Shown here one piece after another: positions 22,038 to 57,057 of a stretch of DNA of 64,000 bases (position 1 is its first letter; every line of letters starts with the position of its first letter). The notes under the pieces were generated by a model. It saw only the letters and a program-made list of their open reading frames with translations. It was not told where the DNA came from and ran no database searches. Both the position numbers and the translations under genes were made by a program. The DNA comes from an uncultured Gammaproteobacteria bacterium (GTDB lineage Bacteria > Patescibacteriota > Patescibacteriia > UBA2591 > UBA6264): positions 18,321 to 82,320 of the forward strand of contig CAZQVF010000002.1 of the NCBI GenBank assembly GCA_964596735.1, given 5' to 3'.

Positions 22038-22499
22038 ATGATTAGATCACGTAAAGGTTTTACTCTCATTGAAATTCTCATTGCCGTCGGGATTATTGCA
22101 ATTTTAGCCGCTATCGTTATTATTGCTATTAACCCAGCTCGTCAGTTTCAAAGAGCGAGAGATTCTCAACGATGGAGTGATGTTAACGCTATTCTTAATG
22201 GTGTTCACCAAAGAATGGTTGACAACAAAGGAAGTTTTGCTGAAGGCACCACCTGTGATGCCCTGCCAGCTACGGTCATGTCTATTACTAGTACAGCTGG
22301 AGCAAACAATGTTGATCTCTGTGATTGTTTGGTAACAACTTATTTAGCCGCTCTTCCTTTTGACCCTTCAACTTCTGGAGCAGGTTTTACTGATTGCAAT
22401 GGCTATACAACTGGTTATACTATTATGCAGGCCGCCACGGGTAGAATTACCGTTGCCGCTCCTGGAGATGAGTTAGATACGATTACAGTAACCCGGTAA
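22038..22499 (+). CDS. pilA: Type IV major pilin (PilA-like), with Cys residues for a C-terminal disulfide
   Basis: N-terminus MIRSRKGFTLIEILIAVGIIAILAAI. About 150 aa. Cys-containing C-terminal region and a strong terminator immediately downstream. Confidence 0.75.
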   Translation: MIRSRKGFTLIEILIAVGIIAILAAIVIIAINPARQFQRARDSQRWSDVNAILNGVHQRMVDNKGSFAEGTTCDALPATVMSITSTAGANNVDLCDCLVTTYLAALPFDPSTSGAGFTDCNGYTTGYTIMQAATGRITVAAPGDELDTITVTR

Positions 22500-22522
22500 T
22501 TTAAAATCAGAATTTACAATAA

Positions 22523-22562
22523 GAGCCTCCACCATGCCAAAAGGTGGCTGGAGGTTTTTTTT
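22523..22562 (+). terminator. Intrinsic terminator after pilA (GCCTCCACC..GGTGGCTGGAGG followed by T8)
   Basis: GC-rich hairpin followed by TTTTTTTT. Confidence 0.7.
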
Positions 22563-22620
22563 ATAGAAAACAGGGTTTGCAAAGATTAAAATTGTTGTTA
22601 GACTTTAATATAACTCTTAT

Positions 22621-23262
22621 ATGAAAAAAATAGATTTGGGAATTATTGGGATAATTAAGCCAAAAGGTATTTCTTCCTTTGGTGTGGTTAGAAAATTACA
22701 ACAAATGAGTAATATTAAAAAGATTGGTCATGCTGGAACCCTAGACCCTTTAGCAACCGGTGTTTTAGTTATTGGTGTTGGCAAACAAGCTTGTCAAAAG
22801 TTAAACAGTATTGTTAAAAAAGAAAAGGAATATATTGCTAAAATTAAATTAGGAGTATATAGTACGACTGATGATGAGGAGGGGGATAAAAAAATAGTAA
22901 ATGTTGAGAATATCCCCTTGTTAAGCCAAATTAGAGAGATGCTGACTGAATTTCAAGGAAAAATCTATCAAGTTCCGCCTATTTTCAGTGCTATTAAAAT
23001 TCAAGGTCAGCCAGCCTATAAATTAGCTCGTCAAGGCAAAAAAGTGGTTTTGAAAAAGAGATTAGTGGAAATAAAGCAAATAAAAATCTTAAAATACAGA
23101 TGGCCGTATCTTGAATTAAAAGCTATTACTGGTCCAGGTGTTTATATCAGGTCTTTAGCTAGAGATATTGGTAAAAAATTAAAAACAGGCGGCTATTTAG
23201 CTGATTTAGAAAGAACAAGGGTGGGGGATTTTAAAAAAGAAAATTGTCTTTTAATTAATTAA
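22621..23262 (+). CDS. truB: tRNA pseudouridine(55) synthase
   Basis: Catalytic motif HAGTLDPLATGVL; size and TruB-like order of motifs. Confidence 0.85.
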   Translation: MKKIDLGIIGIIKPKGISSFGVVRKLQQMSNIKKIGHAGTLDPLATGVLVIGVGKQACQKLNSIVKKEKEYIAKIKLGVYSTTDDEEGDKKIVNVENIPLLSQIREMLTEFQGKIYQVPPIFSAIKIQGQPAYKLARQGKKVVLKKRLVEIKQIKILKYRWPYLELKAITGPGVYIRSLARDIGKKLKTGGYLADLERTRVGDFKKENCLLIN

Positions 23263-23295
23263 AAGTGAATTGTCAATTGTTACTTTTGTAAGCTA

Positions 23296-23324
23296 TTGAC
23301 TTTTTTTATTTTTTTATTAAAATA
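23296..23324 (+). promoter_or_regulatory. Sigma70-like promoter TTGACT-16-TAAAAT driving the plus-strand ncRNA candidate
   Basis: -35 box at 23296-23301 and -10 box at 23318-23323, which predicts a start site near 23330. Confidence 0.45.
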
Positions 23325-23330
23325 ATAATA

Positions 23331-23560
23331 ACCTGAATGTGGAAAATGTCGGTGCCAACACCTATTGATCTGATTATCGTGATGTCCGACAATGAGAGCA
23401 ACTTAACGGATCATAGGGTCGCCGAAAACATTTCCACTTCCTCTGGTTAAACATCATTAGTCGCGCCATAGGACTGGTTAAAGTGCAAAAAGGAGAACAG
23501 TTGCCCTCATTTGAGAAAGGGGGCCCGTCATCATGAGGGCCCCCTGTTTTTTATTAAGAA
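23331..23560 (+). ncRNA. Unidentified structured ncRNA candidate (~230 nt)
   Basis: Promoter upstream and terminator at the 3' end. GC is about 47% in an otherwise ~33% GC intergenic context. A long-range closing helix pairs GTGGAAAATGTCGG (23339-23352) with CCGAAAACATTTCCAC (23422-23437). Only a 37-codon ORF is present. Confidence 0.45.
23521..23560 (+). terminator. Intrinsic terminator (GGGGGCCC-GTCATCATGA-GGGCCCCC followed by T6)
   Basis: Perfect 8-bp GC stem plus U-tract. Confidence 0.75.
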
Positions 23561-23577
23561 AAATATAATCTTTGTAA

Positions 23578-23811
23578 AAAAAGAGAGGGCTGCAAAATGC
23601 AGCCCCTCAAGCGCGCAGAGAGAGGACTAAGGACTTTTTGGTTTGAATGGGGATCGATTTCCTTTTCATACAATGTTTCGGGGATAAAATTTGCATCCCA
23701 CACTCCTAGTAAGTCAAAGGAATATCTTCCCGATTTTTTTAATCCAATAATCTATTCCTTAATTTGTCCTTTTTTCCGCGCTAGCTATATTTTTAAATCT
23801 CCATAAAATAT
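23578..23811 (-). ncRNA. Second unidentified ncRNA candidate on the minus strand (~235 nt), convergent with the first
   Basis: On the minus strand there is a TTGACA-17-TATATT promoter at 23847-23819 and a terminator hairpin (GAGGGGCTGCA TTTT TGCAGCCCTC followed by T7) at 23612-23580. GC content is elevated. The only ORF track entry here (23597-23806 +) is on the opposite strand and has poor coding character. Confidence 0.4.
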
Positions 23812-23818
23812 TATTAAT

Positions 23819-23847
23819 AATATAGCATAAATTTAAGAAATTGTCAA
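23819..23847 (-). promoter_or_regulatory. Sigma70-like promoter (TTGACA-17-TATATT) on the minus strand
   Basis: Read on the reverse complement of 23819-23847. Confidence 0.45.
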
Positions 23848-23900
23848 GTTTGAACCTAAAATAGGTTTACAAAAACACTAATATTTGCTAAAATAAAGCT

Positions 23901-25196
23901 ATGAAAACAAGAATAGTTAATCTTAGGTCAGATCAGCAAAAAGGGTTGAAAGATGTTAATCCTCAGAAATTTCTGTCTGTTTTTGTTATCTCTGCTATAA
24001 GTATTTTTATTTTTATTCTTGTTAGCGGTTTAATTATTGGTCAAAAAAATCCAAATCAATTATTAGCCAGCTCAGCCATGGCTGATTTTATAAAAAAAGA
24101 CACTTCTCCTCAATTCACTATTAAGGAACATGTTATTGAATCAGGAGAAGTTTTTATTAAACTAAACACGGCCTTGGGATTAAGTGAAGAACAATTGCAA
24201 AAAATTCTTAATGCTTCAGAAAATACTTATAGTTTAGTAGAAATTAGAGCCGGAAACAAAATTCGCTCTTTCTTTAATATAACCACTAATGAATTTGAAA
24301 AATTAGAATATGAAATTAATCAAGATAATATCCTAATTGTAGAAAAATTAGAAACCGGGGAATTAAAAGCAGAAAAAAGAGTAGTTGTTTATGAAATTAA
24401 ATTAACCCAGGTTTCTGCCGAAGTTAAAGAAAGTCTTTATCAAACCGGACAAAGCATAGGATTAGCGGATAAAACTATTATGGAAATGGCTGATATTTTT
24501 GCCTGGGATATTGATTTTGGTTTTGATATAAGAGAGGGTGATGAATTTGAACTCTTATATGAAAAAAGGTATTTAGACGGCCAAGAAGTTAATCCGGGAA
24601 AAATCTTAATTGCTCGTTTTCAAAATCAAGAAGAAGATCATTGGGGTGTTTATTACAAAGACTTTGAAGACAGAGAAGACTATTATGATCTAGAGGGCAG
24701 TTGTTTAAGAAGACAGTTTTTAAAAGCTCCGATTAATTACCGCTATATTAGCTCTGGTTATAGCTTAAGCCGTTATCATCCTGTTTGGCATACATATACT
24801 ACTCATCGGGCCATTGATTACGCTGCTTCTTGTGGCACGCCTGTTTCTGCCTCAGGAGCCGGAACTGTTATTCTGGCTGGCTGGAAAAACAATGTTTATG
24901 GATATACAGTAGAAATTCGCCATAATGGTGTCTATACTACTCGTTATGGACATTTATCTGCTTTTGGCAAAGGAATTAGATATGGAGCCAAGGTAACTCA
25001 AGGTCAAATAATCGGTTTTGTGGGAACAACTGGCACATCAACAGGCTGTCATTTAGATTATTCCATGAAAAAATATGGCAGCTTTGTTAATCCTTTAACT
25101 CAGAATTTTGAACGTTCAGATCCAGTTAAAGAAACTTATAAAGAAGATTTTGAATTTAATAAGACCATATTGATTGATTTTCTGGCTGGGGATTAA
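23901..25196 (+). CDS. Membrane-anchored M23 family metallopeptidase (LytM-like)
   Basis: N-terminal TM helix. C-terminal M23 motifs HRAIDYAA ... GTVILAG ... GHLDYSM (HxxxD ... HxH). Confidence 0.8.
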   Translation: MKTRIVNLRSDQQKGLKDVNPQKFLSVFVISAISIFIFILVSGLIIGQKNPNQLLASSAMADFIKKDTSPQFTIKEHVIESGEVFIKLNTALGLSEEQLQKILNASENTYSLVEIRAGNKIRSFFNITTNEFEKLEYEINQDNILIVEKLETGELKAEKRVVVYEIKLTQVSAEVKESLYQTGQSIGLADKTIMEMADIFAWDIDFGFDIREGDEFELLYEKRYLDGQEVNPGKILIARFQNQEEDHWGVYYKDFEDREDYYDLEGSCLRRQFLKAPINYRYISSGYSLSRYHPVWHTYTTHRAIDYAASCGTPVSASGAGTVILAGWKNNVYGYTVEIRHNGVYTTRYGHLSAFGKGIRYGAKVTQGQIIGFVGTTGTSTGCHLDYSMKKYGSFVNPLTQNFERSDPVKETYKEDFEFNKTILIDFLAGD

Positions 25197-29401: not shown

Positions 29402-30284
29402 TAAATATCGAAAAACTTTTAAAAGTCCTAGTTTGAATCGTCGTGTTCGAGTAGCCCGGAATAAACAATCCAGAGCTTATTTTGCTAAAAAGCGAGTTCT
29501 TAGATTAAAAATTTATTTATCTATTATTTTGATTCTTATTCTTTCTGGCTTTGTTGTTTATTTTTTATTTTTCTCCAATTATTCTGAGATAAAAGATATA
29601 AGAATAAGTAAGATAACTGATTATCAATTAATTTCTGAACAAGAGTTGACTGAGATGATTGATCCATTAATAAAGAAAAGGGGGCTAATATTTTCTCAAA
29701 AACATATTCTTATTTTTAAAACAGATGATTTAAGAGAAATAATGACTAATGATTCAAGAATTAATGTTTTTGATATTGAAAAAGACTGGCCTAGCACATT
29801 AATTATTAAAATAGCTGAATCAAAGCCGGTGGCTTCCTTAATTAGCTTTGCTAATAATAAGAATTGTTATTTAAACTCAAAGGGGCAGGTGATTTATGCC
29901 TCTACAGATATTGATTTTACGACGCCTGATGAAGCTGAAAAGGAGATTTTGCCTGTTTTTTACGATAAAACAGAGGTTAATTTAACTGATTTGGCCTATG
30001 TAGAGCTGTTAAAGAGCGTTTTAGGGCTTATAAATTGCGATATTTTAAGCCAAAATAGGATTAAAGCTGATTTAGTTAATATATTGGAAAAAGGTGGTGT
30101 TTTTGAGGTAGAGATCATTACTCAAGAGAAATGGCGCATTTTAATCAATTCAGAGGCCGACTTTGATCAACAAATAAATAATTTAAACTTAATTCTTAAA
30201 CAAGAGATAGAAGATAGAAATGATCTTGAACATATTGATTTAAGGTTTGGAGAAAGAATATTTTACAAATTAAAAGAAAATTAG
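29394..30284 (+). CDS. ftsQ: Cell division protein FtsQ/DivIB-like (bitopic, POTRA-like)
   Basis: Basic N-terminus, a single TM helix, and position immediately after ddl. Confidence 0.55.
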   Translation: MSNKYRKTFKSPSLNRRVRVARNKQSRAYFAKKRVLRLKIYLSIILILILSGFVVYFLFFSNYSEIKDIRISKITDYQLISEQELTEMIDPLIKKRGLIFSQKHILIFKTDDLREIMTNDSRINVFDIEKDWPSTLIIKIAESKPVASLISFANNKNCYLNSKGQVIYASTDIDFTTPDEAEKEILPVFYDKTEVNLTDLAYVELLKSVLGLINCDILSQNRIKADLVNILEKGGVFEVEIITQEKWRILINSEADFDQQINNLNLILKQEIEDRNDLEHIDLRFGERIFYKLKEN

Positions 30285-30316
30285 ATAATATATAAGATTA
30301 GTTTAATTTAAGCAAA

Positions 30317-30392
30317 AAAGAGGCTTTAAAGGGCCTCTCTTGCTTTATACATACAAGCGACGTAAAAGGGATATTGTACGTCGCTTGTTATA
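30317..30392. terminator. Two consecutive hairpins between convergent genes: GAGGC-TTTAAAG-GGCCTCT, and an 11-bp perfect stem CAAGCGACGTA..TACGTCGCTTG
   Basis: Read directly; A-run before and T-run after the first hairpin. Confidence 0.5.
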
Positions 30393-30423
30393 TTTAAAAA
30401 TCTATCAATTTCTTTATCCCCTG

Positions 30424-56889: not shown

Positions 56890-57057
56890 AATTTTAATTA
56901 AAAATAGTCTGTGGCCACAGACTAAAAAATACTAAATAAACACTGATGTCTGGGCAGGAAATTAAGTGTTTTTAAACACACCCGCTGTCTGTGACACTTA
57001 TAATTTAGTATATATTAATATACTTTATTCGTCAATTTATTTTATCCACAGATTTGC
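56890..57057 (-). promoter_or_regulatory. Structured 5' leader of the rplJ-rplL operon (candidate L10 autoregulatory leader) with a perfect 9-bp palindrome AGTCTGTGG/CCACAGACT
   Basis: 168-nt untranslated region with several hairpins immediately upstream of rplJ. Confidence 0.35.

Follow-up and report, generated by a model that had tools for sequence, protein, structure and literature searches.

Patescibacteria (Candidate Phyla Radiation, CPR) possess tiny genomes that leave little space for non-essential sequence, and, to our knowledge, the regulatory and structural RNAs of these organisms are almost unexplored. In the 64-kb stretch of patescibacterial DNA analysed here (the window, to which all position numbers refer), the truB gene (Pfam TruB_N) ends at 23262 and an M23/Csd3 peptidase gene starts at 23901, which raises the question of what the 638-bp spacer between them encodes. 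The initial annotation proposed two convergent non-coding RNAs (ncRNAs) of ~230 nt without a known family. In our analysis, these two units, here called RNA A (plus strand) and RNA B (minus strand), were found again in relatives together with their promoters, helices, terminators and compensatory base changes. We favour the interpretation, with a probability of roughly 0.55, that A and B are stand-alone, non-coding structured small RNA (sRNA) genes, which represent new families of a narrow patescibacterial sub-lineage and are both dispensable and fast-evolving.

Promoters, folds and coding potential of the two predicted RNAs

The spacer contains only short open reading frames (ORFs) of at most 69 aa, in line with the earlier description of ~640 bp lacking a convincing ORF. 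Its G+C content is 0.43–0.48 over 23325–23624, compared with 0.23–0.29 in the flanks, which bears out the G+C-elevated island described before. Values of 0.44–0.46 were also measured in a pilin-like gene (N_methyl motif, 22038–22499) and in part of the M23 gene (24750–24975), so that the RNA island is not the only G+C-elevated stretch in this neighbourhood. The island is identical or nearly so in Joint Genome Institute (JGI) contigs from four samples.

A promoter scan of 22500–24500 returned 14 sites, compared with 7.7±3.1 in shuffled sequences, and the two best scores belonged to the plus-strand TTGACT-16-TAAAAT and minus-strand TTGACA-17-TATATT sites that the initial annotation had pointed out. 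The helix-closed core at 23339–23437 and the two terminators it had described are also present, with a T6 tail on the plus strand and U7 on the minus strand. The predicted parts of the two units are as follows.

23296–23323, plus strand: promoter of RNA A, TTGACT-16-TAAAAT, score 10/12; kept in the related locus L074, there with a TG extension
23330–23552, plus strand: predicted RNA A, ~223 nt, with three-way junction, linker and intrinsic terminator
23493–23508, minus strand: terminator-like hairpin GAGGGCAACUGUUCUC, then CUUUUUG, inside the linker of A
23578–23812, minus strand: predicted RNA B, ~235 nt, with 5′ hairpin, closing stem, three internal hairpins and intrinsic terminator
23819–23847, minus strand: promoter of RNA B, TTGACA-17-TGcTATATT, score 11/12, with TG extension

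We infer the transcription of A and B, as well as the ends of both transcripts, from these promoters and terminators. Both predicted RNAs start right at their first helices. In RNA A, the outer helix P0 (23329–23333 paired with 23476–23480) encloses H1 (23339–23437) and H2 (23439–23473), thereby forming a three-way junction. The long hairpin H1 is closed by the helix GUGGAAAAUGU/ACAUUUCCAC (23339–23349/23428–23437), and the intrinsic terminator spans 23518–23545 (GGGGGCCC...GGGCCCCC) ahead of T6 at 23547–23552. RNA B begins with a 5′ hairpin (23811–23787), followed by a closing stem in three segments (23781–23756 with 23633–23613) and internal hairpins at 23736–23711, 23702–23679 and 23662–23651. 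These hairpins are joined by the conserved single-stranded linkers YUUACYAGRRGU and GUAUGAAMA, and the unit ends in a terminator at 23608–23585 (stem 23606–23586), then U7.

The minus-strand hairpin in the linker of A is, as read from the alignment, kept and stronger in L074 (~845–875; GAGGACAACCUUGUUCUC, 8 pairs then U8), and may serve as a back-up terminator for read-through from B. On the plus strand, the same positions carry AAGGAG and then a UUG mini-ORF that runs into the terminator of A, with the predicted peptides MPSFEKGGPSS in the window and MSSFKGARH in L074.

Related loci were retrieved around close homologs of the M23 protein, and nine distinct relatives' loci were examined. Conservation of the spacer in relatives, on which the initial annotation had made its proposal depend, was found by half: one of the nine loci (L074) carries A and B, and one (L061/L075) carries B alone. 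Consensus structures were calculated with RNAalifold from these homologs and the window. For A (2 sequences), both homologs form all 50 pairs of the consensus; 6 of these pairs are changed on both sides, compared with 0–1 in controls with the partners slid by 1–3 columns. Moreover, the L074 copy of A folds alone into the same architecture (z −4.8). The B consensus (3 sequences) comprises 54 pairs with 91.8% of cells paired; 8 pairs are changed on both sides, compared with 0–2 in slid controls, and its covariation score was reached by 3 of 500 shuffles. Compensatory changes are also carried by the terminator stems of both units.

The promoters and terminators are correctly oriented and kept in the homologs, whereby the promoters are identical or show 1–2 differences. 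Compared with a background divergence of ~25%, A possesses a 20-nt run that is identical or nearly so, and B a 38-nt block with the −10 box and the first ~20 transcribed bases, which is identical in the window and L061 and has two differing positions across three homologs. Further blocks that are identical or differ at 1–2 positions are ATGTGGAAAATGTC and GCAACTTAACG(-)GATCATAGG in A, and TTCATAC...TCCYACAC..CTRGTAA, besides the first ~20 nt, in B.

Since indels between the homologs are mostly not multiples of three (many of 1, 2 or 4 nt), no ORF is conserved. This bears on the suggestion of the initial annotation that the units could be small-protein genes. ORFs of 37, 29 and 69 aa, of which it had listed the first two, do exist in the window. 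However, no ORF keeps its frame or length in L074/L075: in L074 the 37-codon ORF is down to 16 codons, and for the 29-, 49- and 69-codon ORFs the homologs offer nothing comparable in frame and length. The 37-, 29- and 69-aa ORFs are all crossed by indels of 1, 2 and 4 nt, no gene is called in the island in the JGI annotation of four contigs, and no Pfam signal was seen, which makes a protein-coding island hardly credible. Own promoter, own terminator, lack of coding potential and compensatory helix changes, the marks of generic stand-alone structured sRNAs, are thus all found in A and B.

Further candidates were rejected as well. A pseudogene of another protein was ruled out, as six-frame fragments gave no Pfam match. 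A relic of the glycosyltransferase–PMT/TPR gene cassette that relatives carry at this site was ruled out by blastx and Smith-Waterman scores no better than those of shuffled sequences. A type I toxin-antitoxin system does not fit, with no conserved ORF and with A and B lying ~25 nt apart without overlap.

Known RNA families were not recovered either. Rfam 15 at gathering score gave no match in the island when the 64-kb window was searched, and a search with relaxed filters (E ≤ 10) of the islands of the window, L074 and L075 returned no 6S, signal recognition particle (SRP) RNA, RNase P, transfer-messenger RNA (tmRNA), riboswitch, intron or rRNA. The chance matches at E ≤ 10 were terminator hairpins scoring 8–26 bits, compared with gathering scores of 39–229. 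rRNA or intron fragments were ruled out, as Rfam gave no local matches to them. ARAGORN found neither a tRNA nor a tmRNA in the window. The absence of RNase P, tmRNA and SRP motifs reported by the initial annotation thus stands at E ≤ 10.

The initial annotation also mentioned 6S-like RNAs, and B could in principle be a divergent 6S-type RNA that binds the RNA polymerase holoenzyme. Its size would fit (~170 nt from one end of the closing stem to the other), a long interrupted stem unites its 5′ and 3′ ends as in 6S RNA (RF00013), the single-sequence fold of the window copy is rod-like, and its promoter is strong. However, no 6S match was obtained at E ≤ 10 in the three homologs, and the B consensus is not a rod: it forms a multiloop with three short hairpins and an apical stem of 4–5 pairs, without the central bubble or long terminal stem of 6S RNA. 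In addition, B turns over fast in sequence, and at this locus, the part of the related genomes that was searched, it is missing from L056/L062 and from every relative with the glycosyltransferase–PMT/TPR cassette. We therefore consider a 6S identity very improbable. A literature search on Patescibacteria ncRNA and 6S RNA found nothing relevant.

Proposed gain and loss of modules at a variable site

The content of the truB–M23 interval in the compared relatives, with the identity of their M23 protein to that of the window, is given below.

L056 and L062, 90%: 121-bp spacer with neither A nor B
L061/L075, 90%: module B without A
L074, 87%: A and B, preceded by a family-2 glycosyltransferase gene instead of truB
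L001, L053 and L063, 85–87%: glycosyltransferase gene (plus strand) and PMT/TPR membrane-protein gene (minus strand)
L057, 76%: glycosyltransferase gene (plus strand) and PMT/TPR gene (minus strand)
L076, 67%: glycosyltransferase gene (plus strand) and PMT/TPR gene (minus strand)
L059/L060, 64%: 168-bp spacer

The interval is a variable site among relatives, and the island is an accessory, strain-variable block rather than a conserved housekeeping locus. It is built of two modules, A and B, whose loss can occur independently. The earlier suggestion of a regulatory pair is doubtful, given that B is also found where A is lacking.

Homology between the window and L074 starts at CTATTGAC (23292) and includes the whole A promoter although the upstream genes differ, while homology with every relative picks up again at ~23835 (GAAATTGTCAAGTTTGAACC). 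The variable block therefore extends from 23292 to 23834. It is accompanied by the following features.

23292–23834, no strand: variable block (A and B), 543 bp; whole in the window and L074, half in L061/L075, absent in L056/L062
23310–23334, plus strand: direct repeat bracketing module A, left copy; first 11 nt TTTTTTATTAA perfect
23547–23571, plus strand: direct repeat bracketing module A, right copy; overlaps the T-tail of the A terminator
23866–23894, plus strand: promoter-like site of the M23 peptidase gene, TTTACA-17-TAAAAT; kept in all relatives and outside the block

The direct repeat around A (family D3) is imperfect, with 80% identity over 25 nt and a spacing of 237, and fits either a duplication or a deletion substrate. 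L061/L075 lack A; precisely at this junction, the −35 box of A is followed by one remaining copy of the repeat, and in L061 the promoter spacer survives as well. In L056, the −35 box and spacer of A are left and joined to the M23 promoter region, while the body of A is gone. These promoter remnants suggest that the present arrangements arose by deletion from an ancestor with A and B rather than by independent insertions, a direction of events that we infer from the sequences of the junctions.

This also bears on the question of whether a small non-autonomous mobile element makes up the block or part of it, either resembling a miniature inverted-repeat transposable element (MITE) or inserted site-specifically. 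The presence/absence polymorphism at a fixed site, the direct repeat bracketing A (11 nt perfect, 25 nt at 80%) and the location in a hotspot that holds other cargo in relatives would suit such an element. On the other hand, the A promoter remnants in L056 and L061 point to deletion instead of insertion, the repeat search gave no convincing terminal inverted repeats, and the block is not multicopy: with BLAST and the covariance models R1 and R2, one copy per module and no paralogs were found in the 64-kb window and 16 related loci (~180 kb). Four core-pattern scans of 2.9 million viral contigs gave no match, and a metagenome scan with the B core pattern (B alone was scanned) returned L075 only, with the same B as L061. 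Taken together, a mobile element seems very doubtful.

Two sets of matches were discarded. The exact 18-mer GCAGCCCCTCAAGCGCGC matched viral contigs 8 times, always by chance and in high-G+C phage genes. Weak R1/R2 covariance-model matches at 30279–30400 were spurious and due to unrelated terminator hairpins; at 30285–30400, two terminator-like hairpins (GAGGCTTTAAAGGGCCTCTC; ACAAGCGACG...CGTCGCTTGT) follow an ORF that ends at 30284.

The B promoter has a counterpart in the relatives that carry the cassette. The −35 and −10 boxes of B are positionally homologous to those of the PMT/TPR gene promoter, and the start of B corresponds to the start of the PMT/TPR ORF. In L074, A and B sit exactly in the place of this ORF, downstream of the glycosyltransferase gene. 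The M23 promoter-like site and the B promoter are arranged back to back. As a separate observation, the M23 gene looks leaderless, with the −10 box TAAAAT ending at 23894 and the ATG at 23901, and the PMT/TPR gene of the relatives has a leaderless-like layout too (L053, 4755–4800; −10 box ~7 nt before the ATG).

These data are consistent with the following scenario. The A+B block would have replaced the PMT/TPR gene in the ancestor of the sub-lineage, and the partner glycosyltransferase gene would also have been lost in the lineage of the window. Later deletions in sister lineages may then have removed A between the flanking direct repeats, and A together with B in L056/L062. RNA A would be expressed from a sigma-70-type promoter as a three-way-junction RNA that ends at a strong intrinsic terminator, while B would be transcribed from the promoter that serves the PMT/TPR membrane-protein gene in relatives and end at its own terminator. 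Both would most likely work in trans, as free structured RNAs with a protein or another RNA as binding partner.

The site lies in a cell-surface setting, with type IV pilus genes and the M23 peptidase nearby and the glycosylation cassette in relatives. A and B might accordingly be seen as fast-evolving accessory RNA cargo of a cell-surface hotspot, engaged in a conflict of an episymbiont with phages or its host cell, whereby fold and G+C content are kept and the sequence races. We regard this more specific role as improbable.

Sequence turnover and the weight of alternative readings

Two lines of evidence on evolutionary rate have to be reconciled. Between the window and L074 or L075, the 4-fold sites of truB and M23 are 75–78% identical. 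The bodies of A and B evolve at about the synonymous rate or faster. At the same time, the lineage-specific changes in B are balanced, with 26 GC>AT vs 28 AT>GC at a G+C content of ~40%, while the same genes and genomes have a third-position G+C content (GC3) of 0.21 and a 4-fold-site G+C content (GC4) of 0.30. Under neutral A+T-biased mutation, a GC>AT to AT>GC ratio of ~1.6–2.5 to 1 would be expected. This argues against neutral decay of B and suggests that its composition, and with it probably its fold, is maintained. In the favoured interpretation, what selection appears to preserve is transcription, fold and G+C content, not the primary sequence, and A and B are probably real but dispensable small RNAs.

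Several observations weigh against this interpretation. First, the bodies of A and B differ at 22–31% of the aligned positions, in addition to many indels, compared with 22–27% for 4-fold sites (73–78% identity), and B shows 61 lineage-specific changes in 145 columns vs 38 in 120 4-fold sites. Other spacers are 87–98% identical between the window and L074 or L075, so that the A and B bodies diverge faster than these. Second, the consensus structures are derived from the same alignments of 2 distinct sequences for A and 3 for B on which they were evaluated, and a single-sequence minimum free energy (MFE) structure threaded onto the other homologs breaks 10–20 of ~70 pairs. Third, the consensus folding energy is alike on both strands (B −38.5 vs −38.0; A −37.4 vs −38.25). 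The folding z scores against shuffles are −2.7 for A (plus) and −3.7 for B (minus), compared with −3.6 and −5.4 for the respective opposite strands. As both strands fold about equally well, it is the promoters and terminators that assign A and B to their strands. Fourth, close relatives have lost the modules (L056/L062 have neither, L061/L075 have B alone), and no extra copy or homolog was found elsewhere in the window, the related loci or the viral contigs, nor, for B, in the metagenomes scanned. Finally, in a target search over 75 translation-start regions of the window, no pairing with the conserved single-stranded segments scored better than shuffled controls.

Part of this evidence would also be explained if A and B were by-products without a function of their own. 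The orphaned PMT/TPR promoter would persist because it is interleaved with the M23 promoter and could not be removed, and selection would keep the terminators, which stop transcription from the orphaned promoter and read-through from truB from invading the neighbouring genes. The sequence in between would be leftover foreign or scrambled DNA that folds by chance. This possibility agrees with bodies that change no more slowly than synonymous sites and promoters and terminators that are kept best, with the tandem terminators on the minus strand, with the homology of the B promoter to the PMT/TPR promoter, and with the repeated deletion of modules in sister lineages and their tiny distribution. 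It does not account for a G+C content of ~40% at equilibrium without decay toward the GC3 of 0.21, or for compensatory changes in internal helices and not in the terminators alone. Conserved internal blocks (GCAACTTAACG-GATCATAGG and TTCATAC...TCCYACAC) lie far from promoters and terminators, and the promoter of A is its own and not required by any neighbouring gene. We consider the by-product explanation possible but unlikely.

For A, the order of promoter, junctioned aptamer-like domain, linker and intrinsic terminator also resembles that of transcription-terminating riboswitches and leaders. A could thus be a leader that acts in cis, as a riboswitch-like element or as a leader-peptide attenuator, and controls read-through to M23 or antisense transcription across B. 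Read from the sequences, the 8-nt GCCCUCAU and the 3′ arm of the A terminator are complementary in the window, and in both homologs the mini-ORF that follows AAGGAG extends into the terminator. However, no known aptamer class matches, and the alignment indicates that L074 has not retained the anti-terminator pairing and that the frame of the mini-ORF changes after 6 codons. No regulated gene is adjacent: the next gene on the same strand, M23, lies 350 nt downstream, behind the convergent unit B, and the same M23 gene is present in L075 and L056, where A is missing. The odds of a leader function therefore appear low.

Interpreted as stand-alone sRNA genes, A and B can be compared with known systems. 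They resemble generic stand-alone sRNA genes with a sigma-70 promoter and a Rho-independent terminator in size (200–240 nt), in their intergenic and strain-variable location, in the lack of a conserved ORF, and in fast turnover with kept hairpins. They differ in that no seed or target was found and in junctioned folds that are more elaborate than those of typical base-pairing sRNAs. We know of no RNA chaperone in Patescibacteria. A and B were detected by a signal like that of orphan structured ncRNAs, namely a long, G+C-elevated, non-coding spacer with multiple helices in an A+T-rich genome. Such orphans are widely conserved and slow, whereas A and B occur in few lineages that are ~10% apart in amino-acid sequence and change at the synonymous rate. 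One example is the raiA motif, a structured RNA conserved in >2,500 species (PMC11706538).

The two families are tiny and dispensable and are represented by two or three sequences, and structure kept at a synonymous rate of change is unusual. If expressed, A and B would be rare accessory RNA genes in CPR and a tractable case of kept structure with synonymous-rate sequence turnover. If they are by-products of an orphaned promoter, they would show how such promoters get insulated in compact genomes. Either way, the locus is not a missed housekeeping RNA.

Additional observations in the window and related loci

When the TruB region of the window (22621–23262) was used as a query in the genome-contig scan, 2 Patescibacteria loci were confirmed, and the other 46 were archaeal TruB/Cbf5-like loci with 25–34% identity. 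The peptide patterns of the scan may have produced this archaeal-heavy outcome as an artefact, or it may reflect an archaeal-like TruB.

Repeats were noted between promoters and genes in some relatives. In the metagenome-assembled genome (MAG) JAHIMV01, a ~49-bp tandem repeat tatgcgaatagcgcactacgaatgcgcacatgcgaatttattagaatattg is situated between the M23 promoter and the gene (L001, 8940–9098 at the contig end; start of L073) and breaks the assembly. L053 (3027–3167 and 4860–5000) contains a long inverted repeat AACCCCGCACCAAACGACGATA...TATCGTCGTTATGGTGCGGGGTT between the convergent glycosyltransferase and PMT/TPR genes, as well as inserted CCCCGTTAGAAA-type repeats that separate the M23 promoter from the coding region of its gene. 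In the window, the L053 repeat motif did not exceed the level expected by chance.

The sole match in the window above the Rfam gathering score is a ribosomal protein L10 leader (RF00557, 48.3 bits) at 56890–57012 on the minus strand.

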